This document shows, in pieces, positions 25,251 through 56,669 of a stretch of DNA of 64,000 nucleotides (its first letter is position 1; every line of letters begins with the position of its first letter). The stretch is from Cetorhinus maximus (taxonomy: Eukaryota), in contig NC_135901.1 in the NCBI RefSeq assembly GCF_964194155.1, positions 21,266,001-21,330,000 on the forward strand, read 5' to 3'. Position numbers and translations under genes: made by a program. The notes beneath the pieces were generated by a model. It was not told where the DNA came from. It was given only the letters and a program-made list of their open reading frames with translations, and did no database searches.

Positions 25251-25516
25251 GGAAAAAAGAAATTGATTGCTTATCCCACGTACTGAGTCTCCAGTGAGTA
25301 TTCATCGAACTGTTGAGATGTTAATTTCTATTAATAACACACACAGGATAGAACTATGGTGGACGGCCCATACACTTTGGTTGCTGTATAAATTGATGTG
25401 ATAATTTTATATCTTGACCCTATGACTGGTCACGAAACATAATTTTCGATTCAACAATATCATCTTTCAATGGCCTGGGGTTACCCAGCATTCACAGCGG
25501 GGCAGAATATGCCCTA

Positions 25517-27743
25517 AAACAAAAACAGAAATACCTGGAAAAACTCAGCAGGTCTGGCAGCATTGGCGGAGAAGAGTACAGTTGACGTTTCGAGTCTTCA
25601 TGACCCTTCAACAGAACTGAGTAGAAATAGGAAAGGGGTGAAATATAAGCTGGTTTAAGGGGGAGGCGGGGGGGGGGGGGGGGGGGGTTGGGGGAGAAGG
25701 GGGGGGCGTTGTTGGGACAAGCAAGCAGTGATAGGAGCAGATAACCAAAAGATGTCACAGACAAAGGAACAAAGAGGTGTTGAAGGTGGTGATATTATTT
25801 AAAAGAATGTACTAATTAAGATTGGAGAGCAGGACGAGCAAGGTAGCTCTAGTGGGGGTGGGGTGAAATAAACCATGGGTGGAATACATTTTAAAATAAT
25901 GGAAATAGGTGGGAAAAGAAAAATCTATATAAATTATTGGAAAAAACAAAAGGGAGGGGGAAGAAACGGAAAGGGGGTGGGGATGGAGGAGGGAGTTCAA
26001 GATCTAAAGTTGTTGAACTCAATATTCAGTCCGGAAGGCTGTAAAGTGCCTAGTTGGTAGATGAGGTGCTGTTCCTCCAGTTTGCGTTGAGCTTCACTGG
26101 AACAATGCAGCAAGCCAAGGACAGACGTGGGCAAGAGAGCAGGGTGGAGTGTTAAAATGGCAAGCGCCGGGGAGGTCTGGATCATTCTTGCGGACAGACC
26201 GTAGGTCTTCTGCAAAGTGGTCGCCCAGTCTGCATTTGGTCTCTCCAATGTAGAGGAAACTGCATTGGGAGCAACGAATGCAGTAGACTAAGTTGGGTGA
26301 AATGCAAGTGAAATGCTGCTTCACTTGAAAGGAGTGTTTGGGCCCTTGGACGGTGAGGAGAGAGGAAGTGAAGGGGCAGGTGTTGCATATTTTGCGTTTG
26401 GATGGGGAGGTGCCGTAGGTGGTAGTTGAGGAGTAGGGGGTGATGGAGGAGTGGACCAGGGTGTCACGGAGAGAACGATCCCTACAGAATGCCACTAAGG
26501 GGGGTTAAGTGAAGATGTGTTTGGTGGTGGCATCATGCTGGAGTTGGCGGAAATGGCGGAGGATGATCCTTTGAATGCGTAGGCTGGTGGGGTGATAAGT
26601 GAGGACAAGGGGGACCCTATCATGTTTCTGGCAGGGAGGAGAAGGCGTGAGGGCGGATGCGCGGGAGATGGGCCGGACACGGTTGAGGGCCCTGTCAACT
26701 ACCGTGGGTGGAAAACCTCGGTTAAGGAAGAAGGAGGACATGTCAGAGGAACTGTTTTTGAAGGTAGCATCATCAGAACAGATGCGACGGAGGCGAAGGA
26801 ACTGAGAGAATGGGATGGAGTCCTTACAGGAAGCGGGGTGTGAGGAGCTGTAGTCGAGGTAGCTGTGGGAGTCGGTAGGCCTGTAATGGATATTGGTGGA
26901 CAGTCTATCACCAGAAATTGAGACAGAGAGGTCAAGGAAGGGAAGGGAAGTGTCAGAGATGGACCATGTAAAAATGATGGAATGATTCCCCTCTACGTTG
27001 GAGAGACCAAACGCAGACTGGGCGACCGCTTTGCCGAAGACCTTTGGTCTGTCCGCAAGAATGACCCAGACCTCGCTAGCGCTTGCCATTTTAACACTCC
27101 ACCCTGCTCTCTTGCCCACATGTCTGTCCTTGGCTTGCTGCATTGTTCCAGTGAAGTTCAACTGGAGGAACAGCACCTCATCTACCGACTAGGCACTTTA
27201 CAGCCTTCCGGACTGAATATTGAGTTCAACAACTTTAGATCTTGAACTCCCTCCTCCATCCCCACCCCCTTTCCGTTTCTTCCCCCTCCCTTTTGTTTTT
27301 TCCAATAATTTATATAGATTTTTCTTTTCCCACCTATTTCCATTATTTTAAAATGTATTCCACCCATGGTTTATTTCACCCCACCCCCACTAGAGCTACC
27401 TTGCTCGTCCTGCTCTCCAATCTTAATTAGCACATTCTTTTAGATAATATCACTACCTTCAACACCTCTTTATTCTTCTGTCTGTGACATCTTTTGGTTA
27501 TCTGCTCCTATCACTGCTTGCTTGTCCCAACAACCCCACCCACTTCTCCCCCCCCCCCCCCACCACTTTAAACCAGCTTATATTTCACCCCTGTCCTATT
27601 TCTACTTAGTTCTGTTGAAGGGCCATGAGGACTCCAAACGTCAACTGTGCTCTTCTCCACCGATGCTGCCAGACCTGCTGAGTTTTTCCAGGTATTTCTG
27701 TTTTTGTTTTGGATTTCCAGCATCCGCTGTTTTTTGTTTTTAT
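25517..27743. mobile_element. Penelope-like element, tail-out inverted repeat (left arm - 25517-26981; right arm + ~26989-27743)
   Basis: GIY-YIG 'LVYCIRCSQCSFLYIGETK' and RT thumb 'LPFLDLSV..HYRPTDSHSYLDYSSSHP'; arms are reverse complements; TSD cagaatatgc(c/a)cta at 25503-25516 and 27744-27757. Confidence 0.9.
25579..25619 (-). ncRNA. Minimal type I hammerhead ribozyme motif (core variant CUGUUGA)
   Basis: CAGTT-CTGTTGA-A-GGGTC-ATGAA-GACTC-GAAAC-GTC-AACTG: helix I 5 bp, helix II 5 bp, palindromic ACGT helix III. Confidence 0.7.
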
Positions 27744-28890
27744 CAGAATATGCACTATCCGCGCTGCAGTAAGAATTTACGCAGGCGCATTACCAGGTAT
27801 GACTCGGGCATGCGCCTTGTGGCGGTTTTGCAGAGCATGCGCACTGGCGGCTACACGAGGAATCGGTCGAAGGAGCTGAGTGCAGGCCGGTAAATTAGAA
27901 GCCGGTAGATGGGGAGGATTGGAGGCGGCGGAGTGGGCAGCGAGTCTTTATAAACATTCACCAGAGGCTTCAACGCCCGAATAAGGAGCTAGTGGTCCCG
28001 TGGTTGCAGCGAACGGACGGGGAGGCGGCTGTGGGCCGCGGTTCTCGGTCAGAAGCCGGAGCTAACGGCCCCATCGTTCCAGGGGCCAAAGTGCATCAGA
28101 GCGCATGCGCAGCCGCCATCTTTACAGGGACAGTGTGCAGCACGGCGCATGCGCGGTCGTCTCTGTCAGCAGGAGGAGAGAATGTTTTGAAATTCTATCC
28201 TGGACTGACAGGGATTGATTTTGGAAACTCCTTTTACAGGGGGATAGAAGGGGAGGATTTACACACGGCAAACGCAAACCAAGAGAAATATTTGTCTCTT
28301 CTGGTATTGGTCTTTAAAATCCTCATTAGGATGGGCATGTCGATGTGGACAGAATGTTTCCACTTGTTGGTCTGCCCGTTACTGGGGGCCGTGTATACAC
28401 AATAGTTACAAATAAATCCAACAGGAAAACTGGAGATATATCTTTCCTCAGGCAGTAATTAGAAGGTGGAACTCACGACTGCAGGAAGTGGTTGAGAGAA
28501 ATACCTGAGACTCTTTCAAAAAGAAACTAGATGAGAACATGAGAGAAAAGGAATTAGAAAGATGTGCTGAAAGACTGAGCTGAGGTCAGCAGAATAGGAG
28601 GAGACTTGTGTGGAGTAGAATCTCCAGTACAGACTAGATAGACTGAATGGCCTGTTTGTATAATGTATATTCCATGTAATTCTTTGTAAACTTATTTTAC
28701 AGGGTAATGGAAGAGGAGATTTAACGGTCAGGAAAATCAAACCAAACCTCACGCCTGATAGAGTCAGTCGGTTCATTGGGATCTGAAGATTTGTACATCT
28801 GAAGGGATTTAATTGACCGTCTCAGCTGGAAACTAGTGACAGGCTGTTCACCTGCTCCTCCTGTTGGAAGGAATTAAAAAGCTGGTCAAC

Positions 28891-30402
28891 ATGCTGACAC
28901 GACAGCGCGCTCGCAATAGTGAGAGTCCGTTCACCTGCTCCGTTTGTGGGAAGAAATTCATGTGTTCATCCAACCTGCTGGCACACCAGCTAGATCACTT
29001 TGATGAGAAACCTCTTCAGTGCCCTAACACTGGGGAAAGCTTTGAAACCCCTGAGGAACTGGTCCAACACCAGCGAGTTCACACTGATGAGAGACCGTTC
29101 AGTTGCTCCCACTGTGGGAAGAGGTTCAGGCTGTCCTCCCGCCTCGCGGAGCACCAGCTCCTTCACACACACGAGAGGCCGTTCAGCTGCTCTCACTGTG
29201 GGGAGTCATTCAGCGAGTCAGTACATCTCACTGAGCACCAGCGAGTTCACACCAAAGACAGGCCATTCAGCTGCCCCCAGTGTGGGAAGAGATTCGCTCA
29301 GTCTTCCCATTACACTGAGCACCAATTGGTTCACTCCGATAAGAGACCTTTTAAATGCTCAGAATGTGAAAAGACCTTTAAAAGATGCAGGGAACTGCTG
29401 AGACACCAGTGCACTCACACCAGCGAGAGGCCATTCACTTGCTCCGTGTGTGGGAAGAGCTTCACCCGTGCAGTTCAACTTCTGAAGCACGAGGGTGTTC
29501 ACACTGGGGAGAGGCCATTCACCTATTCCATGTGTGACAAGAGAGTTTCTGAATCCTCCCAATACACTGAACACAAACACGTTCACTCTGGTAAGAGAAC
29601 TTTTAAATGTTCTGAATGTGAGAAGACCTTTAAAAGAAGCAATGACCTGCTGATACACCAGCGCATTCACACTGGGGAGAGGCCGTTCTTCTGCACTGAG
29701 TGTGGGAAGAGATTCACTTGGTCATCTAATCTGGTGGAGCACCAGCGCACTCACACTGGGGAGAGGCCGTTCCTCTGCTCTGACTGTGGGAAGAGATTTG
29801 CTCATTCATCTGATCTGGTGAAACACCAGCGAATTCACACCGGGGAGAGACCGTTCACCTGCTCTGAGTGTGGGAAGACATTTACTCGCTCATCCCACCT
29901 GCTGACACACCAGCGGGTTCACACAGGGGAGAGGCCGTTCACCTGCTCTGAGTGTGGGAAAGGATTCACTCAGTCATCCAACCTGTGGATACACCAACAA
30001 GTTCACACTGGGGAGAGACCGTTTCTCTGCTCTGAGTGTGGGAAGGTATTCAGCCGGTTAGCCAACCTGTTGAGACACCAGCGAGTTCACACTGAAGAGA
30101 GACCTTTTAAATGCTCTGACTGCGGGAAGTGCTATAAAACTTCTGGAGAACTGATGCACCATCAACGTGTTCACACTGAGAAGAGACCGTTCAGATGCTC
30201 TCACTGCAAGACTGGGTTCAGGAAATCATCTCAACTCACTTTACACCAGCGAATTCACACTGGGGAGAGGCCGTACACCTGCTCCGAGTGTGGGAAGGGA
30301 TTTACTTGTTCACACCACCTGCTGAGACACCAGCGAGTTCACAGGTCACCGGCAACGTTGGATTTTCTCGTTTTTGCTGCTGAGAATAACGTCCAGGACT
30401 GA
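28891..30402 (+). CDS. C2H2 zinc-finger protein (unit F), 17 finger repeats (15 intact)
   Basis: First ATG at 28891 within ORF 28864..30402; acceptor AG at 28701-28702; C-terminus extends into the family 3' UTR motif. Confidence 0.9.
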   Translation: MLTRQRARNSESPFTCSVCGKKFMCSSNLLAHQLDHFDEKPLQCPNTGESFETPEELVQHQRVHTDERPFSCSHCGKRFRLSSRLAEHQLLHTHERPFSCSHCGESFSESVHLTEHQRVHTKDRPFSCPQCGKRFAQSSHYTEHQLVHSDKRPFKCSECEKTFKRCRELLRHQCTHTSERPFTCSVCGKSFTRAVQLLKHEGVHTGERPFTYSMCDKRVSESSQYTEHKHVHSGKRTFKCSECEKTFKRSNDLLIHQRIHTGERPFFCTECGKRFTWSSNLVEHQRTHTGERPFLCSDCGKRFAHSSDLVKHQRIHTGERPFTCSECGKTFTRSSHLLTHQRVHTGERPFTCSECGKGFTQSSNLWIHQQVHTGERPFLCSECGKVFSRLANLLRHQRVHTEERPFKCSDCGKCYKTSGELMHHQRVHTEKRPFRCSHCKTGFRKSSQLTLHQRIHTGERPYTCSECGKGFTCSHHLLRHQRVHRSPATLDFLVFAAENNVQD

Positions 30403-30524
30403 ACCTTTTCTCCTTTCTAACTCTAGATTATTTCAGTTCTCATACCCTCGGTTACTCTCATGGACAAGTCCCAGCTCCTCATACCTTCCAGAGTGCCTCT
30501 CCTAGCCTTGGGATCCAGGAAAGT

Positions 30525-31275
30525 GTAAGATTTTTGATTTGGGAGCCACAGATACCTTAGAAAGGCAGTCAACTATTTGTAAGTAATTTTAAGATAGTTT
30601 ATTAATAAAAAGACAGTTTAGACACGATGCACGAGCTAATTAGACAGAAAAAGTATATGATCTGTGATAGTTGAGAGCAGTTTACTGATCCCAGAGGACA
30701 AACGGACGGTTGGCACAGAGAGCATTGATCTCAGTAGTTTGTGATAACAGCATTCTGCTCTCTAACCGAAGTGTTAGGGAACTCTTCCTTTGGTCTTCCT
30801 CCTCCTTTTCCATCTGGAGAAGGCGGCTGCCTGATGAGCACTGCCACCTCACCAGCCCTGCCCCCTGTCCCTGAGCACTTGTTGATATAACCTTTTCCTG
30901 GTGGCTTACCCAGTGTCAATCATCTATTCAGACCCGTCTATCCAATGGAAACAGGACAGGTACCCAAAATGTCAGGGTGGTTACCTCCTCCCCTGTTCGT
31001 CGCCGTGCTCCAGGTCAGTTTTTTAGTTTCCGACATGCTGAGCGTCATTTCCTGGCCTATTCTAAACACTTGCATGGATAAGGGGGTACACAAGACACCA
31101 TCCTACCAACTTAGGAATGTTAACATGTCAGCCTGAACCAAGTGACCTTGCCGTTTCCAGGGAATGTTTCGTGTTGTTGCCTGTTTAGAAATTGCCTTTC
31201 CAGAAGTTGCCTTTATGGAGGGAGAAAATCAATGCTGTTGAGCTAATTTCATAGAGCTCTATCCTGTGCAGAAAT
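30525..31275 (-). mobile_element. Probable solo LTR
   Basis: Starts TGTAAGA; minus-strand AATAAA (~30600) and TATA-like (~30887) in LTR order; related fragment at 20315-20480; right boundary uncertain. Confidence 0.4.
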
Positions 31276-31294
31276 ACCAATTTATTAAAGTTTG

Positions 31295-32530
31295 TTTTGG
31301 GAAGGTCACGTTTGACAAATTTGATTGAATTTTTTGAGGAGATAACCAGGAATGTTGATGAGGGTAATGCCTTTGATGTGGTCTACATGGACTTTAGCAA
31401 GGCTTTTGATAAGGTCCCTCATGGCAGACTGGTCAAGAAAGTAAGAGCCCAAAGGCAAAGTGGCATGTTGGATCCAAAACTGGCTGAGAGGCAGGAAGCA
31501 GAGGGTGATGGCACAGGGATGTTTCTATGACTGGAAGTCTATTTACAGTGGGCTCTGCAGAGCTCAGTGCTGGGGCCCTTGCTGTTTGTGCTATATATCA
31601 ATGATTTGGACTTAAATGTAGGGAGCATGATCAAGAATTTCACGGATGACACGAAAAGTGGCAGGGTGGTAAATAGTGAGGAGGATTGCCGTAACTGCAG
31701 GAGGGTATCAATGGACTGGTCTGGTGGGCAGAGCAGTGGCAAATGGAATTCAACCTAGAAAAGTGTGAGTTAATGCACTTGGGGAGAGCTAACAAGGCAA
31801 GGGATTACACTGTGAACGGCAGGACCCTGGGAAGTACTGAAGATCAGAGGGAACTTGGTGTACATATCCACAGATCCCTGAAGGTAGCAGGGCAGGTAGA
31901 CAAGGTGGTTAAGAAGGCATACGGGATACTTGCCTTTATTAGCCAAGGCATAGAATACAAGATCAGGGAGGTTATGCTGGTACTGTATAAAACGCTGGTT
32001 AGGCCACAGCTGGAGTGCTGTGTGCAGTTCTGGTCACTACATTACAGGAAGGATGTGATTGCACTGGAGAGGGTGCAGCCTGAGCTGGAGAGTCTGAGCT
32101 ATGAGGAAAGATTGGATAGGCTGGGGTTGTTTTCCTTGGAGCAGTGAACGTTGAGAGGGGACCTGATAGAGGTGTATAAGATTATGAGGGGCAGAGATAG
32201 GGTGGATAGGAAGGCACTTTTTTCCATTAGTAGAGGGGTCAATAATCAGGGGGCAGAGATTTAAGGTAAGAGATAGAAGGCTACGAGGGGAGTTGAGGTG
32301 AAATTTCTTCACCCAGAGTGGTGGGAGTCTGGAACTCATTGCCTGAAAATGTGGTTGAGTCAGAAACTCTTGTAACATTAAAGAAGTATTTAGATATTCA
32401 CTTCTGTTGCCATAGCCTCCAGGGATATGGGCCAAGTGTTGGAAAATGGGATTAGTGTAGTCAGATCTTTGTTGATTTGTGCAGGCATGATGGGCCGAAT
32501 GGCCTCCTCCTGTGCTGTAAACGTCTGTGA
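31295..32530 (+). mobile_element. CR1 LINE, 5'-truncated, RT to 3' UTR
   Basis: 'LTNLIEFFEE..VYMDFSKAFDKVPH', 'LGPLLFVLYINDL', 'LYKTLVRPQLECCVQFW'. Confidence 0.9.
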
Positions 32531-32549
32531 GTCTGAGAGTCTAAATCCC

Positions 32550-32760
32550 ACCATCGGAGACACCAGCGAGTTTACAGATGGCTGCAGGAGTTGGATTTTG
32601 CTATTCATCACGTCCAGGACGGAGCCATGTTCATTGGGGTCTTTTTCTGTTGATGTTATTAAGTTCCAGCCGAGTTATAGATGTCAATATCTGGATAAAA
32701 GTCAAATAAATCAGCTTTATAAACACATCGGGTGATGAGTCATTTTAATATTTCTAACAC
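32550..32760 (+). pseudogene. Orphan ZNF 3' end (last finger residues plus 3' UTR and polyA signal)
   Basis: 'gagacaccagcgagtttac..ggttggattttgctattcatcacgtccaggac..aaataaatcagcttt' matches the 3' ends of D, G and J. Confidence 0.7.
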
Positions 32761-32764
32761 AGGT

Positions 32765-33190
32765 TACTTCCTTGATTGGCACCCAATCCACCACTGTAAA
32801 CATTCACTCCTTCCATCACCGACACACAGTGGCAGCAATGTGTACCATCTACAAGATGCACTGCAACAACTCACCAAGGCTTCTTCAACAGCTCCTTCCA
32901 GCAACCCCTACCGAAGGACAAGGGAGCAGATAGATGGGAGCACCACCACCTGGAGGTTCCCCTCCAATCCAGTCACCAACCTGACTTGGAAATATATCCC
33001 GTTCCTTCACTGTCACTGAGTCAAAATCCTGGAACTCCTTCCCTAACAGCACTGTGGGTGTACCTACACTACATGGACTGCAGTGGTTCAAGAGGATGGC
33101 TCACACCACCTTCTCAAGGGCAGTTAGGGATGGGCAATAGATGCTGGCCTAGCCAGTGACGCCCACTTCCTGTGAACGAATAAAAAAAGT
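32765..33190 (+). mobile_element. HER1-type LINE 3' end
   Basis: Colinear with 22350-22775. Confidence 0.8.
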
Positions 33191-33194
33191 GCTG

Positions 33195-35940
33195 TCCATC
33201 TCCCCTGTCTCCATCCTCATCTCCAACAACAAGTGCGAAGACCTCATGGAGCTTCTTTGTCACAAAGATTGAGACAATTTGATCAGCTGCTTCCCTCCCT
33301 TCCACTAGCCCACAAGGCCAAACTCTCTCTAAAGTTCCCCCTTGTCTGAGCCCTGAACTCACATCTTTCTCCAGTTTCTCTCCTATCTCCCATCATGTCC
33401 TGTCAGAGCTCATCTTATTCACCTCCTAGTCCCTCGACCCTATTCCCACTAAGCTGCTGACCATCCACCTTGCCCAAAGTACTGGGGAAATCGCCTGGAC
33501 AGTATCAGCTGCCACTGTGGATTCACGGTTGAGGAGTTGTTGAAAATGTTCTTTCCTGTGTTGATGGATGATATTGTCATCCCCAAGGAGAGAAACACCA
33601 TCCTGTGAGTGAAGGGGATTTTGTCCATTATCTTGGTCTATTCATGGCCCTGGTGGCTTCAAAAAGCTTTGCTTGTCGTGATGGTCAGCGTATTGTTGGG
33701 TATCTCGGGCTTGCTCCTCCCACCACTTGTACTTTATTGTCTTTGGCCGTCAGCTTTGAGCTGTTGGAACTCTGCCTTCTTGCCACCTCGGGTTGTTCTG
33801 CAGGGCAATGAAGGTTCATTTTTGTTACAGGAGGTCACATTTTGAACATCATTTTCATTGAACCAGTCCTGGTGACGACGATGCTCGAACCCAATGGTCT
33901 GGGAACAGGAGTCTTGTACAGCTGACTTCATCCGATCCCAACGTTCTGAGAAGAAACGACACAGACCAAATGGTACAATTTTGAAGAGGATGCAGAAAAG
34001 GACAGACTTGGGTTTGTTTGTGCACAAATCTCTGAAGGTGTGAGGACAGGTTAACAAACAGTCAATGAAGCAGACGGGATGCTGGGCTTTATAAGCAGAG
34101 ACAGAGAGTACAAAGGTCAGGAAGTCTCACTATAAAAAACATTATTTCTGCCCCGTCTGGAGTATTGTGTCCAATTCTGAGCATCACATTGTAGGGAGGA
34201 CATGAAAGCTTTGGAGAGGGCACAGAGGAGATGGATCACAGGACCACGGATCAATAAGAGAACCTGGGGCTGTTCTCCTTGGAACAGAGAAAGTGAAGAG
34301 GAGATTTGATAGACCTGCTTAAAATCATGAAGGGTTTAGATAGAGTGAATAAGGAGAAAATATTTCCAATGGCCAATGGGTTTGATAACCAGAGGACATT
34401 GATTTAAAGTGATTGGCAAGAGAACCAGAGGCATCAGGAGGAAATCTTTTCAGTAACAAGTGGTTAGGATTTGGAATGCACTGTCTGATGGGGCGATGGA
34501 TACCGGTTCAAGAGTGATCTTCAAAAGGGAATTGGATAAATATTTTAAGGAGAAATGATGCAGGGATGGGATAAAGAATGGGGGAGTGGGACTAACTGGA
34601 TTGCTCATCGAAAGTTACCAGCACAGATTCAATAGGCCAAATGGCCTCTTTCTCTGGTGTACTATTAAGAGATTCCATGATTTATAATACAATGATTCAT
34701 AATAAACATGATATGATAGAATCATAGAGCATGGACGGTGGCCATTCAGCCCGTTGTCCCTGTACTGTGCCTGAAAATGTTACCAATCTGTCCCACTCCC
34801 CTGCTCTTTTCCGATCGCCCTCCAAATCTTTCCTTATGAGATAAAAGTCCAAATCACTTTTGAAAGTTACTATTGAATCTGCTTCTACCAATCATTCCGA
34901 CAATGAAAACAATGACTTCGGTCTTCCCGATATTTAATTGGAGGAAATTTCTGGACACCCACCACTGGATGTCAGACAAACAGTCTGATCCTTTACCAAG
35001 AGTGGAGAAGTTGAGAGAGGTGGTGGTGAGGCAGAACTGGGAGCTGTCAGTGTAAATGTGATAACTGACAAGAGTTTTCAGATTATGTCATTGTTTGGAG
35101 CAGATTAATGAGAAATAAGAGGAGACCAAGGTGTATCCTTTGGGGATACCAGCGGTAACTGTGGGAGTGGGAAGGGAAGACATTACGAGTGATTCTCTGA
35201 CTATGATTCGATAGAGAAGAATGGAACCAGGAGACAGCAGCCCCACCCAGCTGGACGACAGGGGAGAGGTGAAGGTGCAGAATGATGTGGTCAACATTGT
35301 CAAAGGCTGCAGACAGGTCGAGGACGAGAAGGGAGAGTTTATCTTTGTCACAGTCACATAGGGTGTCATTTGTGACTTTGATAAGAGTTGTTTCAGTACT
35401 GTGGCAGGGGCAGAAACATGATTGGGAGGATTCAAAGATGGAGTTCTGGGAAAGATGGGCAGGGATTTGGGAGGTGACAGCATGTTCAAGGACTTTGGAG
35501 AAGAAAGAGAGGCTGGAGATGGGACAGTAGTTTAGGAGGATGGTGGGGTCAAGGATTTATTTTTTGAGAAGGGTATAATGATGGTAGATTTGAAGGTGAG
35601 AGGGACAGTACCTGAGAGAGAAAATTGTTAGCATAGTCAGTGAACATGGAGAAGTTGAGTGATCAGTAGTTTAGTGGGAATAGGGTTGATGAAGGAGGTG
35701 GGACAAGATGAGCTCTGAGAGGGCCTGAGGTGAGATGGGAGGGAAACTACAGAAAGATGTGAGTTCAGGGGTCAGGCAACAGGGAAATTTAGAGAAAGTT
35801 CAGCCCCGTGGGCTAGTGGAAGGGAGGGAAGCAGCAGAGGCAGCTGATCAGATTGTCTCAATCTTAGTGACAAAGAAGCTCCATGAGCTCCTCACACTTG
35901 TTGAAGGTGCGGATGGAGGAGACGGGGAGAGGGAGAGCAC
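33195..35940. mobile_element. Nest of L2 (33195-33470 +; 34900-35940 -), RTE-like (33480-33950) and CR1 (33960-34890) fragments
   Basis: L2 segments are reverse complements of each other; 'RRHQDWFNEND' is RTE-like; CR1 3' ends are recognisable. Confidence 0.7.
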
Positions 35941-36152
35941 TTCAAAAAGAACTAACCTGAGTTAGAGATATTCAAAAAACCTCAATGGATTTGCGTTTAA
36001 CACAAAGCTGCTTATTTGATTTTTATCAAAAATATTAGCCCCTGTAAGTGGTCTGGAGGTTAGTAAAATCAGCAGAAATAGACTCCATTGAACATGGTTC
36101 AGTCCTGGATATGATTAACAGCAAAATCAAATCACTGTAGTTACTTATGAAT

Positions 36153-40549: not shown

Positions 40550-40990
40550 ACAAGGATAAGAGCGCATGCGCCCTGCTGCACATTGACCCCCCCGCCCCTA
40601 TAAAGATGGCGGCCGTTAAACCGGGCCTGTGACCCAGAGGAGTTCACGAGCTTTCGCCACGCCCCGCCCCATTCCGTGTAAACAGGATCGGTAGTTTTTA
40701 GTCGGTGTTTGAGGCCTCTACCGAGTGTTTATGAAGCCTCTCCGCCCACTCTCCTGGCTCTAATCCTCTCCATCCACCCAGTGGCTCCATTACTCATCCG
40801 CACTCCACTATTTCTCGCTTCTCTGTCTAACGCCAGGCACAATCTGCACTGCGCATGCCCCAGTCAGAGACCGCCATTGCGCATGCTCCGGTTGTGCCCA
40901 GCAGTGCGCCTGCGCAGGAAGCGCCTGTTGTCTGGATAGGACATATTCTACCCTGCGGCGAATGCTGGGTAAATGCCCCGCCATTGTAAT
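40550..40990 (-). promoter_or_regulatory. Intact CpG-island promoter (uninserted homologue of the two PLE-hit promoters)
   Basis: Minus strand reads 'caatggcggggcaTTTACCCAGCATTCgccgcagggtagaatatgtcctatcc'; three GCATGCGC; YY1-like AAGATGGCGGC on the plus strand at ~40603. Confidence 0.8.
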
Positions 40991-44350: not shown

Positions 44351-44354
44351 TGGG

Positions 44355-45080: not shown

Positions 45081-45082
45081 TG

Positions 45083-45763: not shown

Positions 45764-46280
45764 TCACTTATGAATTTGCTGATGTGTCAGCAGGTGAGAT
45801 GACCTAGTGTATCCCTTCCCACACACGGAGCACGTGAATGGCCTCTCCCCAGTATGAGTACGTTCATGTAACAGCAGGCTAAAGGACTGAATGAATCCCT
45901 TCCCACACATGGAGCAGGTGAACGGCCCCTCCCCAGTGTGAGTGCGTTGGTGTGCAGTGAGGCTGGATGACTGTCTGAAGCTCTTTCTACAGTAGGTACA
46001 GCTGAATGGTTTCTCCTCAGTGTGAATTCGCTGGCGTGTCAGAAGGCTGGATGAATGAGTGAATCCCTTTCCACACACAGAACAGGCGAACGGCCTCTCT
46101 CCAGTGTGAACTCGCTTGTGTGCATTGAGGTCGGATGAACACCTGAACCTCCTTCCACAGTGAGAGCAGCTGAACGGCCTCTCCTCAGTGTGAATTCGCT
46201 GGTGTAACTGCAGGCTGAATGACCACATGAATCCCTTCCCACACATGGAGCAGCTGAAGGGTCTCTACCCTGTGTGAATT
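45764..46280 (-). pseudogene. 5'-deleted C2H2 zinc-finger unit I (6 finger repeats)
   Basis: ORF 45764..46246 begins inside a finger; no acceptor, leader or promoter upstream; abuts an inverted copy of its own 3' flank. Confidence 0.75.
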
Positions 46281-46930
46281 TTCTATATTTCCATATCAGG
46301 TTTGTTCCTGCTTATGTTAACAACCCCTATAACTGGCTGGAGTTTAACATTCTGGAGATGTCAATAATTTTCACGGCTGTCCCTTTTTAAAAGCCATGAA
46401 AGATCTGTGATCTTTCCTCTCTCAACTGGAACTCGTTTACAATAAAGTAATGAACTTTCACTTCAATCCTAAATTGGTCTTTGGTGCAAAATCTACAATT
46501 CAATGTCTGAAAGGTTCCATTGATTAACATCTGCAATTAGAAAGTGCTGATTAATCCTTGCTGACAATTCTTACTCACTTCCACATTCTTCACCGTGACA
46601 CCTCCGTTATGAAATTAAGTTATCAAAGAAGAATCAAAATAGTAAAATATTTTACAGGCACATTAATAAAAGCTTCATCGATCAACATTGATACTGATGA
46701 AGCTTGGAAGTCGCTGAGTTCAATCATTTCTGACACAGCAGCAGCAACATTTGGTTAAGGTGGAACCCACAACAAAGGCTGGTTTGAGAACTGATCAACA
46801 GATATGATATCTGTCATTGAAGTAAAAAGCAAAGCCTACCTGATGCACAACATAGACCCAACAGCTAGAACATCTTGTAACTTGAATGTAGCCAAGACAG
46901 TTGTGTAAAAAACAGGGAGATACTGTTCAA

Positions 46931-47680
46931 TGTCATGAAGCTATTAATGTCAATAATATTTTGGAAAATATTTTTTTTAAAAATAGAGATTTAGTCTGTG
47001 GGTATGTCTTAAGTGTATTAAAGCCAGCTAGTCTGGGTGCTTTGATAGGTACTCATTTTGATATGCAAGAGAGAGAGCGTGCATTTGCATTTTTTGAATA
47101 GAGCATTCAAGAAGTGGAGTGAAAATTGACGCTTTTCTAGCAGCTACCAAGCAATATGTTTATATTACTCATAAAATTGTTATTATGAATGGGGTTTTAT
47201 TCTTAAAAGGTGAAGTTCAAAGAGGTTGTTGAAACAATGAGAATTAACATTCAGTGGGGCTGGTAGGTATAATTTCAGTAGTTTTCAGGCAGAGGCAATG
47301 TAAGATCAAAAGACAGCTGCAAGCCTCCAACTGGCTCCAAAGTGAAAAGAACCTCATTTTGAATTTATGAGGTGAAAATACTTTGCCTGGTGTTTGGTTA
47401 AGTCTATGGGTTGCTGTTGCCTTAATGGAGATTAGTTTGGGAATTTGTTAAAAGCTATAACAGTAGTAATTTGTAGCCATGTGTATATGTTTTAACCTGT
47501 GTAAATTAATAAATGTTTCAATTAGTTTAATGTAAAGCCTCGAGAACTGATGGTCTGATTCCTGAATTTCGGGTCGCACCTCAAACATAACACTTAAAAT
47601 TATAGGTTATGACAGTTGTTTAAAGTTTCCCTCTGGGATTTTTAAATAACTCTACTTCACCAGCTGCATTGGTCATAACA
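46931..47680 (+). mobile_element. Solo LTR (750 bp), probably Gypsy/ERV type
   Basis: TGTCATGA...TCATAACA termini; AATAAA at ~47508; interrupts the RTE sequence with a (t/g)caa 4-bp duplication. Confidence 0.7.
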
Positions 47681-48334
47681 GCAAATAAACACTGGATCAA
47701 CCTGTGTCAAGAAATTCAACCAGCCTGCAACACAGGAAATCTATGTGTTGTGTAGTGATTGGATGAACAGGGCACTTGGTTCGACCATCAACAAAGTTGC
47801 CCCCCACCGAAATCACATGGTGAAGTGCTCATCAACAGAAGTAATCAGATGTCCTGCTGGGTTGAACATTACTGTGATCTGTACAACCATGAGATGGACA
47901 TCTCCCAGTCTCTGTTTGACTCTCCAGGACCTTCCTGTCGTAGTTAGTTCGTCAAGGAACCCTCATGACTCGAGCTTGAAAAGGCCATTGATTGTTCAGC
48001 AAGCAGAAAGTCACCCAGCCTAATGGAATTTCAGCTGAACTGCTCAAGCACGGAAAGTCCCATCTATTGTTAGCACCCACTTCTCTGTTGGGAGGTAGGA
48101 ACCATTCCACATGCGTGACACAAAAATCATCACAATAACCAAAAACAAATGTGACAGAAGAGATTGTGACTACATGGACATCTCACTCCTTAGAATCACT
48201 AGGAAGACCTTCACTCGGGTCATGTTTTAAAGACTTTACCTTTTTGCAGTCTGAGTCTCTGGAGAAGCTCAGTGCAGTTTCTGTGCTGGTAGATCTTCAG
48301 TGGACATGATCTTCTCCATACACCAGCTACAAGA

Positions 48335-51300
48335 GAAGTTGGAGGAAGAAGGAAGGAAGAGCATAGTGACAGGGGATTCATTAGTTAAGGGAACAGAGCG
48401 GTGTTCCTGCGGCCATAAACATGACTCCAGGATGGTATGTTACCTTCTTGGTGCCAGGGCCAAGGATGTCACCGAGTGGGTGAGGGACATTCTTTTGGGG
48501 GAGGGTGAACAACCAGAGGTCGTGGTCCACGTTGGTACCAATGACTTAAGTAGGAAGAGGGATGTGGCCCTGCAGACGGAATTTAGGGAGCTAGGTAGAA
48601 AATTAGCAAGCAGGACCTCAAATGTAATATTCTCCATATTATTTCCAGTGCTATGTGCAAGTGAGCATAAAAATAGGATAAGGCAGATGAATGCGTGGCT
48701 GGAAAGATGTTGCAGGAGGGAGGGCTTTAGATTCCTGGGACACTGGGAGTGGCTCTGAGGGAAAATGGCACCTGCACAAGCCGGAAGGGTTGCACCTGAA
48801 CAGAGCCAGGACTGAGCTCCTTGATGTGTGTTTGCTAGTCTTGTTGTGGGGGTTGGGGGAGGCTTCAAACTAATTCAGCAGGGGTGTGGGAACCAGGAGA
48901 GAATATTAGAGAGTAATAATAAGCTGCAAAAAATACTGGGAGAGACAGATAACATGAGAATAGCAAATAGTAAGGAAATAGGCACAATCGGAGTGAGGGT
49001 GAAAGTAATGCACTCAAAATCAGGGTTATACTATATGTATGTGAATGCACGGAGTATAGTAGATAAGATTGCTGAGTTACAGGTGCAGATTGCCATGTGG
49101 AAATATTACGCTGTGGCGATGACAGAGATCTGGCTCAGGGAAGGGGAGGACTGGGTGTTAACTATCCCTGGGTACAACATGTTCAGGAAAGGTAGGGCAG
49201 GAAGAAAAGGAGGGATGGGTGGCTGTATTGATTAAGGAAAGCTTTGCAGTGCTGGAGAATGAGGATGTCCAGAGAGTTCAAGGACAGAATCAATTTGACT
49301 AATGCCAAGGAACAAAAAGGGTGCAATTACATTGCTCAGTGTAATCTATAAACCGCCAACTAGTAGGAAGGATGTAGAGGAACAAATCTGAAGGAAAATA
49401 GCAGAGAGTTGCAAACATTATAGAGTAGCTATAATGGCGAACTTTAATTTCCTGAATATAGACTGGGATAGTGGCAGTGTAAAGGGTAGAGAGGGGCATG
49501 AGTTCCTAGGGTGTGTTCAGGCAAATTTTCTACAGCAGCATGTGTCCAGTCCAACAAGAAAGGAGGCACTGCCAGACCTGGTTTTTGGAAACGATGTGAG
49601 CCAAGTAGATCAGGTGTCAGTGGGGGAACATTTAGGAGACAGTGATTATTGTATCATAAGGTTTAGGATGATGCTAGAAAAGGACAATGTGCAATCCAGA
49701 GTAAGAATAATTAACTGGGGGAGCGCTGACTTCAATGGAGCAAGAACAGAACTGGGCCGGATAGACTGGAACCAAAGGTTGGTGGGAAGACGTAGCTGAA
49801 CAATGGGCTACCTTGAAAGAAGAAATGATTCTGGCAGAGTCAAGGTATATTCCCTCAAAAGGGAAAGGTAGGGCAATTCAGAGCTCCCTGAATGAAAAAT
49901 GAGATAGAAATTAAGATAAAGAAGAAAAAATGTGCTGATGACAGGTGTCAGGTAGAAAATACAATTGGGAACTAGTCGGACTACAGAAGAAGGTTCAGAG
50001 GGGAGATGAAAATGCAAATAAGAGAAGCAAAGAGGGATCATGAGAAAAAAAACTGGCAGCCAACATAGAGAGGAATGCCAAAGTCTTCTATAGGCACATA
50101 AAACGATGGTAAAAGGAGGAGTAATGTCAATTAGGGACCAAAAGAAAGGATTACACATGGAGGCGGGGGCATAGCTGAGGTGTTAAATGAATACTTTGCA
50201 TCTGTCTTTACCAAGGAAGCAGATGCTACCCAGGCCACGGTGACAGAGGAGGAACCTCTGTCGCTGGAAGGGTAAAAAATTGATAAGGGGGAAGTGTTGG
50301 TTGAACTGTTGGTACTTAAAGTTGACAAGGCACCGGGACTGGATGAGATGCATCCAAGGATATTGAAGGAAGTTATAGTAGAAATTGCAGGGGCACTGGC
50401 CATAATCGTTCATTCTTCCCTTGACTCAGGGGAGGTGCCAGAGGACTGTAGAATTACAAACATTACGCCCTTGTTCAAAAAAGGTTGTAAGGATAAGCCC
50501 AACATTTACAGACCAGTCAGTTTAACTTCTTTGGTGGGGAAGCTTCTAGGGAAAATTATTTGGGATAGAATTAATCATCACATAGAAGAATGTGAGTTGA
50601 TTAGGAAGAGCCAGCAACGTTTTCTAATGGGGAACAAAACCAAGAATTGCTGGAAAAACTCAGCAGGTCTGACAGCATCTGTGGAGAGGAAAACAGAGTT
50701 AACGTTTCGAGTCCATATGACTCTTCATCAAAGAGAAATAGAAATATGGTGAAATATAAGCTGTTTAATGGGGGGTTGGACAGGTGGTGGTGGATAGAGG
50801 GCCAGTGATAGGTGGGGGCAAAGGAGAGATTACCAAAGATGTCATAAACAAAAGGTCAAAGGGGTGTTGACGGTGGTGATATTAGCTAAGGAATGTGCTA
50901 ATGGTGACATTAAGGATAAAAAGCAGGATGAGCAAGTGACAGATGGCCCTAGTGGGGGTGGGGTGGGGGTAGGGGATCGAAATAGGCTAAAAGGTGGGGA
51001 TAAAGCAATGAATGGAAATAAATTTTTAAAATAATAGTAGAAATAGGTGGGAAAAGAAAAAATGTATATATAAAAAATGTATAATAATTATTAGAAAAAA
51101 GGGGATCAAAAAGGGTGAGGATGGAGGAGGGAGTTCATGATCTGAAGTTGTTGAACTCAATGTTAAGTCTGGGAGGCTGTAACGGACTCGAAACATTAAC
51201 TCTGTCTTCCTCTCCACAGATGCTGTCAGACCTGCTGAGTTTTTCCAGCAATTTTTGGGTTTTTGTTTCAGATTTCCAGCATCTGTAGTATTTTGCTTTT

Positions 51301-52555
51301 TTCTAAAGGGGAAATCGTGTTTAACTAACTTGCTAAAGTTCTTTGAAGAGGTAACAGAGAGGGTTAATGAGAGTAATCCTTTTGAACTGTTTATGGACTT
51401 TCAAAAGGCATTCAATACAGTGCTGCACAACAGACGTGAAAAATGTTATAGCTGATAGAATAAAAGGGACAATAGCAACGTGAATACAGAATTGGCTGAG
51501 TAATAGGAAACAGAGAGTAATGGTCAATGGATATTTTTCTGACTGGAGGAAGGTTTCTAGTGGAGTTCCCCAGAGGTCGGTATTGAGATCCTTGCTTTCT
51601 GTGACCAATATTAACGACCTAGATCTTAGTGTGCAGGGGAAAATTTCAAAATTTGCGGATGATACTAAACTTGGAAGCATTGTAAACTGTGAGTATAGAA
51701 CTTCAAAAGGACATGGACAAGGTGGTGGAGTGGGCAGACAGATGGCAGATGAAGTTCAATGTGGAGAAGTGTGAGATGATGCATTTTGATAGGAAGAACA
51801 TGGAGAGACAATGTAAAATAAGGGGTACAATTCTTAAGGGGGTGCAGGACCAGAGGGGCCTGGGTGTATATATGCATAGATCATTAAAGGTGGCAGGACA
51901 GGTGAAGAGAGCTGTTATTAAAGCATACAGTATTCTAGGTTTTTTAAACAGGGGCATAGAGTACAAGAACAAGGAGGTTATGCTGAACTAATATAAGACA
52001 CTAGTTAGACCTCATCTGGAGTATTGTGTACAGTTCTGGGTGTCACAGTATAGGAAGGATGTGAATGCATTTGAGAGAGAGTGAAGAAGAGGTTTACAAG
52101 AATGGTTCCAGGGATGAGAAACCTCAGTTATGAATATAGATTGGAGAGGTTGGGACTGTTCTCCTTGGAGAGGAGAAGGCTAAAAGGAGATTTAATAGAG
52201 ATGTTCAAAATCATGAGGGGCTGGATAGACTAGATAGGGATAAACTGTTCCTGCTCATAAAAGGATAGAGAACAAGAAGGCACTGATTTAAGGTGGTTTA
52301 CAAAAGAAGCAAATGTGATGTGAGAAAAAAACTTATTCACTCAGCGAGTGGTTGGAGTCTGGAATGTACTGCCTGGAAGTGTGTTGGAGGCAGGCTCAAT
52401 TGAGGCATTCAATAGGGCATTGGGTGATTATCTGAATAGAAACAATGTGCAAGGCGACAGGGAAAAGGCAGAGAGCGGCACTAAGTCATAATGCTCATTT
52501 GGAGAGCCAGTACAGGCAGGTTGGGCATCCCTCTGTGCCATAACAATTCTGTGTT
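48335..52555 (+). mobile_element. Near full-length CR1 LINE: ORF1 SGNH-esterase, APE endonuclease, RT, 3' UTR; decayed and interrupted by a PLE
   Basis: 'IVTGDSLV..VVVHVGTND..EGLHLN' (esterase); 'YVNARSI..AMTEIWL', 'HLGDSD' (APE); 'GVPQRSVL..KFADDTKL' (RT). Confidence 0.9.
50635..51298. mobile_element. PLE tail-out inverted repeat (left arm ~545 bp, right arm ~115 bp) inside the CR1 RT
   Basis: TSD ttttctaa(t/a)ggggaa at 50620-50634 and 51299-51313 duplicates the CR1 F-L-K-G codons. Confidence 0.85.
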
Positions 52556-52559
52556 TCTG

Positions 52560-53140
52560 TGATTATCAGAAGGGATTTGAGATCCCAGTTTGAGCTGGAA
52601 ACTCATGGGTAAAATCATGAAAAGGTCATTCACCAGCTCAATGTGGAAAAGACTCATAAAAAAGCCACATACTGCGGATGCTGGAAATCTGAAATAAAAA
52701 ATGCTAGAAAAACTCAGCAGGTTTGGCAGCATCTGTGGAGAGAGAAACAGAGTTAATGTTTCGAGTCCGTATGACTCTTCTTTAGAAGAAGTGATTCACT
52801 CGGTCACCCCATTCGCTGACACAGCAACACAGTTACACCTGAGAGAGGCCATTCAGATACTACATTTGTGCAAAGGGATTTACTCACTTTGCCCACCTGT
52901 TAACACTCCAGTTTTAAACGTTCAGAGGCTTTGATCCAAAATTGCTACATTCCTATTGACAACACAGAGTTTGAATGTTCTGTGTATGGGAAGAAAAGTC
53001 ACTTGTTCAAACTGCCGACTGAGAGTCCAGTGAGTTCACAACTAACCATAGGTGTATGTTCTGTTGTTAATTATACCGGGACAGAACTATGGTGGAGGGC
53101 GAGTACACTTTGGTTGCCGTTTCAATTGACTTAATAATTT
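52560..53140 (+). pseudogene. Highly decayed ZNF 3' end upstream of a promoter, with a PLE fragment at ~52656-52785
   Basis: Finger-like remnants 'gattcactcggtcaccccattcgctgacacagcaacacagttacacctgagagaggccattc'; homologous to 41000-41360 (-) and 25250-25450. Confidence 0.6.
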
Positions 53141-53145
53141 TACAT

Positions 53146-53400
53146 AACACAAACTCAGAAAGTGCTGGAAAAACTCAGCAGGTCTGACAGCATCTGTGGA
53201 GAGAGAAACAGACTTGACGCTTCAAGTCTGGATGATTCTTCTTCAGAGCTGAAGAAGAGTCAGCTCTGAAGAAGAGTCATACGGACTCGAAACATCAAGT
53301 CTGTTTCTCTATCCACAGTTGCTGTCAGAACTGCTGAGTTTTTCCAGCATTTTCTGTTTTTGTTTCAGATTTTCGGCATCCGCAGAATTTTGCTTTTATG
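53146..53400. mobile_element. Miniature PLE tail-out inverted repeat with canonical HHR core CTGAAGA at 53266
   Basis: TSD ataatttta(c/t)at at 53134-53145 and 53401-53412; empty site at ~25401. Confidence 0.8.
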
Positions 53401-54000
53401 ATAATTTTATATCTTGGCCCTGTGGCTCCAATCAGCATCGGATCACAAAACATAATTTTCTGCTGAACAAAATCACATTTCAATGGCAGCCTGTTTACCC
53501 AGCATTCGCCGCGGGGCGGAATGGACCCTATTCTTTTTACAAAACAAAAACAGAATTACCTGGAAAAACTCAGCAAGTCTGGCAGCATCGGCGGAGAAGA
53601 AATCAGTCAACGTTTCGAGCCTCCATGGCCCTTCGGCAGAACTGCAGCATAGTTTCAACAAGGGAGAAATATAAATTGGTTTAAGGTGGGTGGGGGGCGG
53701 GGGGGAAGAGACACATTGAGGGTGTGGTGTGAGCAGATAATAATCAAAAGATGTCAGAGACAAAAGGGTCAAAGAGGTGTTGAAGGTGGTGGTCTTTGTC
53801 TGAGAAAAGTGCTAATTAAGAATGGAAGACAGGATATTCAAAGTACAGCTCTAGTGGGGGTGGGGTGGAAAGACTAAAGGTTTTAGTTTTAGATTTAAAA
53901 ATAATGGAAATAGGTGGGGAAAGAAGAATCTATATAAATTATTGAAAAAAAGCGGGTGGAGGGGGAAAAGAAACGGGGTGGGGATGGGGGGAGGGGGAGT

Positions 54001-55281
54001 TTAAGATCTAAAGTTGTTGAATTCAATATTCAGCCCAGAGGGCTGTAAAGTGCCTAGTCGGAAGATGAGGTGCTGTTCCTCCAGTTTGCGTTGGGCTTCA
54101 CTGGAACAATGCAGCAAGCCAAGGACAGACATGTTGGCAAGAGAACAGGGTGGAGTGTTAAAATGGCAAGCGACAGGGAGGTTTGGGTCTTTCTTGCGGA
54201 CAGACCGCAGGTGTTCCGCAAAACGGTGGCCCAGTTTGCGTTTGGTTTCTCCAGTGTAGAGGAGACCGCATTGGGAGCAACGAATGCAGTAGACTAAGTT
54301 AGGGGAAATGCAAGTGAAATGCTGCTTCACTTGAAAGGAGTGTTTGGGCCCTTGGACGGTGAGGAGAGAGGAAGTGAAGGGGCAGGTGTTGCATCTTCTG
54401 CGTGGGCATGGGGAGATGCCATAAGTGGGGGTTGAGGAGTAGGGGGTGATGGAGGAGTGGACCAGGGTGTCCCGGAGGGAACGATCCCTACGGAATGCCG
54501 TCAAGGGGGGTGAAGGGAAGATGTGTTTGGTGGTGGCATCATGCTGGAGTTGGCGGAAATGGCGGAGGATGATCCTTTGAATGCAGAGGCTGGTGGGGTG
54601 ATAAGTGAGGACAAGGGGGACCCTATCATGTTTCTGGGAAGGAGGAGAAGGCGTGAGGGAGGATGCGCGGGATATGGGCCGGACACGGTTGAGGGCCCTG
54701 TCAACGACCGTGGATGGAAAACCTCGGTTAAGGAAGAAGGAGGACATGTCAGAGGAGCTGTTTTTGAAGGTAGTGTCATCAGAACAGATGCGACGGAGGC
54801 GAAGGAACTGAGAGAATGGGATGGAGTCTTTACAGGAAGCGGGGTGTGAGGAGCTGTAGTCGAGGTAGCTGTGGGAGTCGGTAGGCTTGTAATGGATATT
54901 GGTGGACAGTCTATCATCAGAAATTGAGACAGAGAGGTCAAGGAAGGGAAGAGAAGTGTCAGAGATGGACCATGTGAAGATGATGGAGGGGTGGAGATTG
55001 GAAGCAAAATTAATAAATTTTTCCAGGTCCCGACGAGAGCATGAAGCAGCACCGAAGTAATCATCGATGTACCGGAGAAAGAGTTGTGGGAGGGGGCCGG
55101 AGTAGGACTGGAACAAGGAATGTTCCACATACCCCATAAAGAGACAGGCATAGCTGGGGCCCATGCGGGTACCCATAGCCACACCTTTTATTTGGAGGAA
55201 GTGAGAGGAGTTAAAGGAGAAATTGTTCAGTGTGAGAACAAGTTCAGCCAGACGGAGGAGAGTAGTGGTGGATGGGGATTG
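54001..55281 (-). CDS. 5'-truncated PLE polyprotein (RT C-terminal half + GIY-YIG endonuclease), frame still open
   Basis: Part of ORF 54001..55398; no native start because the N-terminal ~39 aa come from the inverted arm. Confidence 0.8.
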   Translation of the reverse strand, partial: QSPSTTTLLRLAELVLTLNNFSFNSSHFLQIKGVAMGTRMGPSYACLFMGYVEHSLFQSYSGPLPQLFLRYIDDYFGAASCSRRDLEKFINFASNLHPSIIFTWSISDTSLPFLDLSVSISDDRLSTNIHYKPTDSHSYLDYSSSHPASCKDSIPFSQFLRLRRICSDDTTFKNSSSDMSSFFLNRGFPSTVVDRALNRVRPISRASSLTPSPPSQKHDRVPLVLTYHPTSLCIQRIILRHFRQLQHDATTKHIFPSPPLTAFRRDRSLRDTLVHSSITPYSSTPTYGISPCPRRRCNTCPFTSSLLTVQGPKHSFQVKQHFTCISPNLVYCIRCSQCGLLYTGETKRKLGHRFAEHLRSVRKKDPNLPVACHFNTPPCSLANMSVLGLLHCSSEAQRKLEEQHLIFRLGTLQPSGLNIEFNNFRS

Positions 55282-56354
55282 TTTTCCATCCACGGTCGTT
55301 GACAGGGCCCTCAACCGTGTCCGGCCCATATCCCGCGCATCCTCCCTCACGCCTTCTCCTCCTTCCCAGAAACATGATAGGGTCCCCCTTGTCCTCACTT
55401 ATCACCCCACCAGCCTCCGCATTCAAAGGATCATCCTCCGCCATTTCCGCCAACTCTAGCATGATGCCACCACCAAACACATCTTCCCTTCACCCCCCTT
55501 GACGGCATTCCGTAGGGATCGTTCCCTCCGGGACACCCTGGTCCACTCCTCCATCACCCCCTACTCCTCAACCCCCACTTATGGCATCTCCCCATGCCCA
55601 CGCAGAAGATGCAACACCTGCCCCTTCACTTCCTCTCTCCTCACCGTCCAAGGGCCCAAACACTCCTTTCAAGTGAAGCAGCATTTCACTTGCATTTCCC
55701 CTAACTTAGTCTACTGCATTCGTTGCTCCCAATGCGGTCTCCTCTACATTGGAGAAACCAAACGCAAACTGGGCCACCGTTTTGCGGAACACCTGCGGTC
55801 TGTCCGCAAGAAAGACCCAAACCTCCCTGTCGCTTGCCATTTTAACACTCCACCCTGTTCTCTTGCCCACATGTCTGTCCTTGGCTTGCTGCATTGTTCC
55901 AGTGAAGCCCAACGCAAACTGGAGGAACAGCACCTCATCTTCCGACTAGGCACTTTACAGCCCTCTGGGCTGAATATTGAATTCAACAACTTTAGATCTT
56001 AAACTCCCCCTCCCCCCATCCCCACCCCGTTTCTTTACCCCCCCCCACCCGCTTTTTTTTCAATAATTTATATAGATTCTTCTTTCCCCACCTATTTCCA
56101 TTATTTTTAAATCTAAAACTAAAACCTTTAGTCTTTCCACCCCACGCCCACTAGAGCTGTACTTTGAATATCCTGTTTTCCATTCTTAATTAGCACTTTT
56201 CTCAGACCACCACCTTCAACACCTCTTTGACCCTTTTGTCTCTGACATCTTTTGATTATTATCTGCTCACACCACACCCTCAATGTGTCTCTTCCCCCCC
56301 GCCCCCCACCCACCTTAAACCAATTTATATTTCTCCCTTGTTGAAACTATGCTG

Positions 56355-56395
56355 CAGTTCTGCCGAAGGGCCATGGAGGCTCGAAACGTTGACTG
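56355..56395 (+). ncRNA. Minimal type I hammerhead ribozyme motif (core variant CUGCCGA); mirror copy at 53604-53644 (-)
   Basis: CAGTT-CTGCCGA-A-GGGCC-ATGGA-GGCTC-GAAAC-GTT-GACTG; helix II covaries relative to the 25579 copy. Confidence 0.7.
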
Positions 56396-56669
56396 ATTTC
56401 TTCTCCGCCGATGCTGCCAGACTTGCTGAGTTTTTCCAGGTAATTCTGTTTTTGTTTTGTTTTGGATTTCCAGCATCCGCAGTAGCTTTTAGCTTTTTGT
56501 TTTTATCCCTATTCTTTTTATTCATTCACGGGATGTGGGCGGCTGGTTGAGAGGAGATCCTTGCGCAGGCGCAGTACCGGGCAGCGACAGGCACATGCGC
56601 AGTGTGAGCTCAAAGCGGAGCATGCGCAGTCCATAGAGTCCGGAGCTGACCGAAGGACTGAGAAATATC

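Follow-up and report, generated by a model that had tools for sequence, protein, structure and literature searches.

Why do two Penelope-like elements sit at the same position of two paralogous zinc-finger (ZNF) gene promoters? The question is raised by a 64,000-nucleotide stretch of the Cetorhinus maximus genome, referred to here as the window, which covers 21.27-21.33 Mb of the 65-Mb sequence NC_135901.1 (C24) in a 4.0-Gb genome. We found that members of this dispersed element family have inserted independently at least 11 times at bases +22 to +44 of the same promoter type. We propose, as the probable though by no means certain explanation, that in open chromatin of the germline the endonuclease of the element likely reaches just those bases left bare between the sites that factors occupy.

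Two separate insertions in one promoter cassette

The window holds about 10 C2H2 zinc-finger exons. C24 as a whole is a chromosome-scale, 65-Mb array of about 600 C2H2 zinc-finger genes with a single common promoter cassette and many recent segmental duplicates. The cassette combines YY1-like, ZNF143-like and NRF1-like words, which we take from motif shape to be putative binding sites for YY1, ZNF143 (Staf) and NRF1. A strict cassette pattern has 386 copies genome-wide, and C24 accounts for 99 of 100 among the matches listed; a looser pattern (ZNF143-like with NRF1-like words) gave 607 matches, some counted twice, and its control none. Offsets are given relative to the T of TACCCA in the ZNF143-like motif, which is +1. 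The features of the two inserted promoters and of their empty paralogs are as follows.

25468..25499, forward: promoter 1, YY1-like CAATGGC and 18-bp putative ZNF143/Staf-like site, by motif shape
25503..25516, forward: element 1 target-site duplication, left copy, +22 to +35
25517..27743, forward: Penelope-like element 1, truncated at its 5' end; an inverted 5' arm is followed by a sense arm with the tail at its end
27744..27757, forward: element 1 target-site duplication, right copy, one mismatch
27779..27843, forward: NRF1-like array of promoter 1, 2.2 kb from its ZNF143-like site
53482..53513, forward: promoter 2, putative YY1-like and ZNF143-like sites
53526..53539, forward: element 2 target-site duplication, left copy, +31 to +44
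53540..56506, forward: Penelope-like element 2
53540..55281, frame 54001..55257 on the reverse strand: inverted arm of element 2, with reverse transcriptase end, CX4CX2C linker and GIY-YIG endonuclease
56507..56520, forward: element 2 target-site duplication, right copy, exact
10029..10080, forward: empty paralogous promoter
40940..40990, reverse: empty paralogous promoter

Both duplications are 14 bp long and contain CCCTA, 20 bases past TACCCAGCATT; they overlap, with registers 9 bases apart. The two elements are 79-87% alike when aligned, they differ in their inner junctions and in the identity of their inverted arms (92% in element 1 vs 98.7% in element 2), and their flanks align merely in short patches of 72-85%. 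Elements 1 and 2 are therefore separate insertions and not one duplicated event. A sequence-only reading of the window had come to the same view, and several of its other descriptions held as well: the uninserted promoter reads as described at 10029 (forward) and 40971 (reverse), the 14-bp read-out bears out a CCCTA in both duplications about 20 bp past the motif, and the spacing given for the displacement of the motif from the NRF1-like/first-exon region, 2.2 and 3.0 kb, is correct. In a related organism, one contig (X18, record 10) spans an uninserted site with about 90% identity, although this may be a paralogous copy.

An insertion hotspot in the promoter linker

In an unbiased search for element ends 15-150 bases past a ZNF143-like motif, made without any bias towards the linker, six of the 40 matches lay on C24. 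All six were at promoters, with junctions at +34, +35, +38, +42, +44 and +104, the last of these falling in native linker sequence that a long interspersed nuclear element (LINE) tail has displaced downstream. With the window pair set aside, three junctions remain in the 11 bp from +34 to +44, compared to 0.11 expected for 650 promoters (28-fold, P 2e-4; 20- to 36-fold if 900 to 500 promoters are assumed). The breakpoint enrichment across the family that the sequence-only reading had called for is thus present at this offset in the C24 promoters. Searches biased towards the linker added six events (L136, L138, L171, L253, L305 and L281). The total comes to at least 11 independent events within the 23-base gap at +22 to +44, nine of them outside the window, in about 2% of promoters. 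Five events begin exactly at +22, two in sense and three in antisense orientation, and two share +31 to +44 in opposite orientations within the lineage that carries the LINE tail; among the 11, a clear duplication is missing from one event, and those of two others are short or imperfect. Direct sampling of C24 promoters found a linker insertion in 0 of 49, a sample with too little power.

The family is dispersed, with at least 16,695 tails and 95,960 anchors genome-wide, and the rate was 1.5e-5 anchors per strand-base at motif copies outside promoters (34 and 28 matches over about 15,000 sites) and 1.2e-5 when computed from the genome total. Nor is C24 itself rich in the element: 188 kb contained 3 anchors and 283 kb contained 8 (16 and 28 per Mb, respectively), compared with 24-30 per Mb genome-wide.

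One promoter, at 37.56 Mb of C24 (L281:1540-1990), was hit twice, first by an old linker element and then by a young one that duplicated an NRF1-like site. It is the sole insertion seen inside an NRF1 array, in a promoter that was already interrupted.

Further hotspots in the same genes

A control search upstream of the motif had 22 of its 50 matches at promoters, and the 20 of these that were read resolve into six events at about -21, -22, -90, -96, -99 and -103. The proximal promoter from -145 to +145, the window pair excluded, carries 13 events vs 2.7 expected; distal upstream DNA carries 4 and distal downstream DNA 7, each vs 2.8 expected. A second site emerged from a search anchored on NRF1-like words (96 matches). 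It lies about 400-450 bp downstream, likely in intron 1, some 45-50 bp beyond a YY1 and NRF1-like pair (L379-L407), and the window contains an empty copy.

28169..28200, forward: second hotspot, uninserted copy beyond the YY1 and NRF1-like pair, likely in intron 1

An element occupies 29 of 672 copies of this second site, and every junction falls within 8 bp. After 17 copies with a common inner junction were merged, at least 10 events remain where about 0.1 is expected (about 100-fold); right-hand junctions were within reach in 9 of the 29, and the event count comes mainly from structure. The proposal of a hotspot just downstream of the ZNF143-like motif therefore stands, with at least 11 independent insertions, as one of several hotspots and not the strongest.

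Sequence preference and shielding by bound factors

Background targets show a weak preference, A/C-rich 5' of each nick, and we built a sequence model of about 3 bits with independent positions from 43 background sites. With five motif-adjacent sites also included, the peak inside the motif was 9.0; without them it is 5.1. The model peaks at -100 to -87 and at -25 to -19 coincide with the upstream events. A further peak lies inside the ZNF143-like motif (+9 to +12), so that 62% of local cuts are predicted in the motif, and the modelled rate at +19 to +37 is 0.44, below average. At stray motif copies, for which 30 of the 34 background matches were examined, 7 of 30 junctions fell at +16 to +25, corresponding to a cut inside the motif, and 5 at +28 to +46. 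In promoters, in-motif cuts account for none of the five unbiased events (Fisher P 0.04, model P 0.008). Cuts are thus missing from the motif where sequence predicts them, which argues for shielding by a bound factor. The sequence-only reading had attributed the hotspot to a factor-bound nucleosome-free region, and the part of that idea that concerns bound factors is upheld to the extent that they appear to shape it.

Sequence does leave its mark. At both main hotspots the end of the duplication falls at CTA^TCC, and where a lineage has acquired a T-rich LINE tail in its linker, the duplication shifts from the +22 to +35 register to that of +31 to +44. An equally strong predicted cut 21 bases from the second site was never used. 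Sequence thus sets the register and part of the rate, and position sets the rest. A likeness between the promoter linker and the element tail (a 7-base match, found by eye) was set aside as a probable coincidence.

Could the hotspots then be good endonuclease substrates that gene duplication has multiplied 600-fold, with no role for chromatin? The common CTA^TCC end, the match of the upstream clusters and the second site to predicted peaks, and a register that moves with the linker sequence all speak for this. However, the model is below average at the linker and its in-motif peak is unused, CTATCC is favoured merely 1.5- to 1.7-fold at the second nick genome-wide (among 100 matches listed of 245), and sequence accounts for only about 14 of the 100-fold at the second site. 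We consider this explanation unlikely.

Another account would have elements insert evenly, hits on the motif or start site being purged and the survivors spreading by duplication or gene conversion. Copying is indeed common: one linker insertion has spread to 6 copies, and upstream insertions were copied too, one being present in 5 copies and others in up to 12. In intact promoters no junction falls between +46 and +103, as purging would give. Nevertheless, our events had already been collapsed from copies by duplication, orientation and structure, and purging makes gaps rather than rates above the genome average. Purging also fails to explain the empty motif interior, because a cut there would leave the motif whole: cuts at +10 to +22 spare it just as those at +22 to +35 do, yet they are absent. 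The enrichment itself already speaks against this account, which appears improbable to us.

Proposed mechanism

We propose that the endonuclease enters open promoter DNA in the germline, where motif shape suggests that ZNF143, NRF1 and YY1 would occupy their sites in a nucleosome-poor promoter. The bound motifs would exclude the enzyme, and cuts would gather at the first free bases past the ZNF143 footprint, whose edge we place provisionally at +22. A weak A/T sequence preference might set the exact register. The hotspot would be visible because the promoter exists in about 600 copies, and it would be a passive by-product, with no targeting of repressors. An unrelated LINE tail landed once at the same linker spot.

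Alternatively, a host factor at the promoter (ZNF143, or NRF1/YY1) could tether the element protein, which would then cut at a fixed distance from it, as Tf1 does beside Sap1. The +22 boundary is common to five independent events, which include both orientations, the unused cut near the second site is equally good by sequence, and an enrichment of 30- to 100-fold is high for access alone. Against tethering, the family is as dispersed as described above and insertions occur at several offsets, on either side of different motifs. Motifs of the Staf-binding site (SBS) type elsewhere gave no promoter match (0 of 2 and 0 of 3, with low power and an unclear number of true sites). One event kept to the linker sequence where the LINE tail had displaced it, 60 bases from the motif, and the LINE, which uses a different endonuclease, also hit the spot. 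Tethering therefore seems doubtful to us. A more ambitious claim, which we put forward only tentatively, as a rather unlikely possibility, is that host promoter factors steer this element, the first such case among Penelope-like elements: ZNF143/NRF1/YY1 complexes would position the endonuclease so that it makes a staggered cut of fixed length, 13-14 bases, next to their footprints. If this is true, the ZNF-promoter chromosome records germline factor occupancy at base resolution.

Several points weigh against the access-and-shielding explanation that we prefer. The unbiased count beyond the discovery pair is merely three, the window and the +34 to +44 interval were chosen after the pair had been seen, and six of the 11 events come from linker-biased searches. 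Taken as a whole, +10 to +145 is only 3-fold enriched (4 vs 1.3 expected, P 0.05). The shielding test becomes borderline once the window pair is left out (0 of 3, P 0.056), and the model behind it is weak, given its 3 or so bits and independent positions. Sequence alone gives a 14-fold peak at the second site, and the GGATA half-site occurs in 3 of 96 background sites vs 0.2 expected. Matches adjacent to NRF1-like words number 12 (8 events, of which 4 lie off the ZNF chromosome family) vs about 1.9 expected, and enrichment off C24 is not shown. Finally, occupancy is read from motif shape.

The element family and related systems

By motif content, the window elements fit endonuclease-bearing (EN+) Penelope-like elements of the Neptune/Nematis type. 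The C-terminal GIY-YIG endonuclease domain (PF01541) was recognized in one arm at E 6.6e-05 and 23.6 bits (cut-off 22.6) and scored 20.7 bits in the other arm. It has the CCHH motif with a CxxC between GIY and YIG, reading VYCIRCSQCGLLY[T/I]G and then two histidines, and the linker between reverse transcriptase and endonuclease is of the CX2-5CxxC type (CPRRRCNTC). The C-terminal part alone of the reverse transcriptase is present; a YIDD motif is visible, and the RVT_1 match (E 0.032) is below the cut-off. A hammerhead had no Rfam match, shuffled sequences fold as well as that region does (z 0.12), and core-like words were seen by eye alone. Of 103 tails examined, 49 have a traceable duplication (48 distinct, 11-15 bp), 40 none within reach and 14 are internal. 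The structure of an inverted, 5'-truncated copy plus tail recurs outside the window, the inverted end coming first in 41 of 48 traceable background copies. In these copies (L072-L232) the inverted 5' end starts at the same internal point in 41 of 48, which is consistent with priming from both cut strands. One copy (L171:1268-1295) carries a (TA)n run between element tail and target duplication, as if added at priming.

Neptune/Nematis elements, in the part of PMC8557442 that describes them, share the C-terminal GIY-YIG domain with CCHH, the CX2-5CxxC linker, 5' truncation, an inverted 5' copy and a 30-40 bp tail. The target biases set out there are microsatellites, rDNA and telomeres, whereas here we see 11-15 bp duplications in ordinary DNA and clustering at promoter motifs to the base. 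There is also a likeness to PAc, a Poseidon element of Anolis, which according to the section of PMC11167929 concerned cuts both strands with a weak AT preference and starts copying from two sites that define the tail; these two start sites match both kinds of element end observed here. As presented in that section, PAc is known in vitro without chromatin, and Poseidon is without the zinc linker that is present in our elements.

The closest parallel for the insertion pattern is Tf1, whose insertions, in the account given in part of PMC5371812, cluster in open promoter regions at set distances from the DNA-binding factor Sap1. Base-level clustering at fixed motif offsets was likewise found here. 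Tf1, however, is an integrase element directed mostly to promoters via a known contact (PMC5371812, same part), whereas this family is endonuclease-based and dispersed, and 6 of 40 motif-adjacent matches lie at promoters, so that most insertions are not at factor sites. The genes recall the human KRAB-ZNF clusters, in which, according to the relevant portion of PMC3627581, zinc-finger genes stand in tandem and their promoters contain an 18-bp SBS. The human genes encode KRAB-ZNF proteins and are bound by ZNF143, whereas here we have zinc-finger exons and motif shape alone. A literature search that covered titles, abstract openings and few subscription papers found no report of promoter- or factor-shaped insertion by Penelope-like elements. 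The phenomenon is known from Tf1; what is new is its occurrence in a dispersed Penelope-like family, read from hundreds of replicate promoters.

The target choice of Penelope-like elements in chromosomes has been little studied. With about 600 replicate promoters, old insertions become a footprint of chromatin in the germline of an animal for which functional data are scarce. The +22 to +35 linker, with and without ZNF143, offers a defined substrate for the in vitro Penelope assay that already exists. The findings show one way in which the promoters of ZNF clusters diversify; they do not show an arms race.

Consequences for the zinc-finger genes

The insertions separate the ZNF143-like motif from the NRF1-like array. 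The zinc-finger exons behind the two window promoters are as follows.

28840..30402, forward: C2H2 zinc-finger exon of the gene behind promoter 1, a single open frame of 520 codons
62023..63030, forward: zinc-finger exon downstream of promoter 2, two frames (6+2 linkers)

The two-frame split of the latter also occurs in uninserted paralogs of its lineage. A finger array was missing in 1 of 12 inserted and 2 of 30 empty genes. With all controls pooled, the comparison of unbroken first arrays gave P 0.10, and outside the LINE-tail lineage the counts were 4 of 8 inserted vs 28 of 38 empty genes (P 0.22).

These counts bear on the suggestion, made in the sequence-only reading, that mobile elements here disrupt the promoters of their possible repressors, that is, that the element has been selected to disable zinc-finger genes that repress it. 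Zebrafish ZNF families do repress young elements, as stated in part of PMC10547256, and the first array was unbroken in 4 of 11 inserted vs 21 of 28 empty genes taken from 16-21 Mb (P 0.03). This sign of gene decay did not survive matched controls, in which the difference disappeared (unbroken in 3 of 10 controls matched by lineage and in 7 of 10 matched by region; pooled P 0.71), and there is no loss of CpG content behind the insertion (P 0.40). Moreover, the inserted promoters, about 2% of all, hold a tiny share of the element copies of a dispersed family, and no link connects these fingers to the element. The suggestion is therefore unsupported, and selection for such attacks seems to us highly improbable. 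In humans, ZNF143 binds clustered KRAB-ZNF promoters (PMC3627581, in the portion cited above). Together with ZNF repression in fish, this makes an effect on the inserted genes plausible by analogy, although our data show none.

The LINE tail and neighbouring fragments at promoter 2

Three further mobile-element remnants lie in and around promoter 2.

53149..53399, forward: old Penelope-like fragment ending at about -97
56512..56545, reverse: short antisense LINE/short interspersed nuclear element (SINE) 3' tail, an old insertion common to 19 promoter copies
56676..57065, reverse: third young Penelope-like fragment, likely at the exon 1 end of gene 2

The antisense tail had been read as a further mobile-element sequence at the same spot. 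It is real, at about 56512-56545, but it is not a third independent event of the window, since paralogs share its junction. The identical junction occurs in 18 other promoter copies (18 of 23 search matches), 16 of which have no Penelope-like element in the linker; the tail is therefore one older insertion inherited by duplication. The duplication of element 2 takes in part of the tail, so the tail is older. We take it to be putatively of the HE1/HER1 kind. A table in PMC3747384, in the part that we draw on, assigns HE1/HER1 to sharks and rays, and on that putative label the repeats point to a shark or ray. Sense-strand LINE tails near NRF1-like words gave 10 matches genome-wide and none on C24.

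The old fragment at 53149-53399 is also found upstream in most paralogs of the LINE-tail lineage. Both this fragment and the young one at 56676-57065, which lie in the same promoter as element 2, had escaped the sequence-only reading. The 19-copy lineage (L240-L257, and 53149-57065 in the window) has three independent linker insertions and others near -97 and at the exon 1 end. Finger arrays are broken in 7 of 10 sampled copies, and this may be a decaying lineage that tolerates insertions.

Elsewhere in the genome, an NRF1-like word stands about 30 bases before an old element tail in a repeated unit on C38, C314, C397, C441, C1557, C1574 and C1800, which is probably one duplicated insertion in another gene family.

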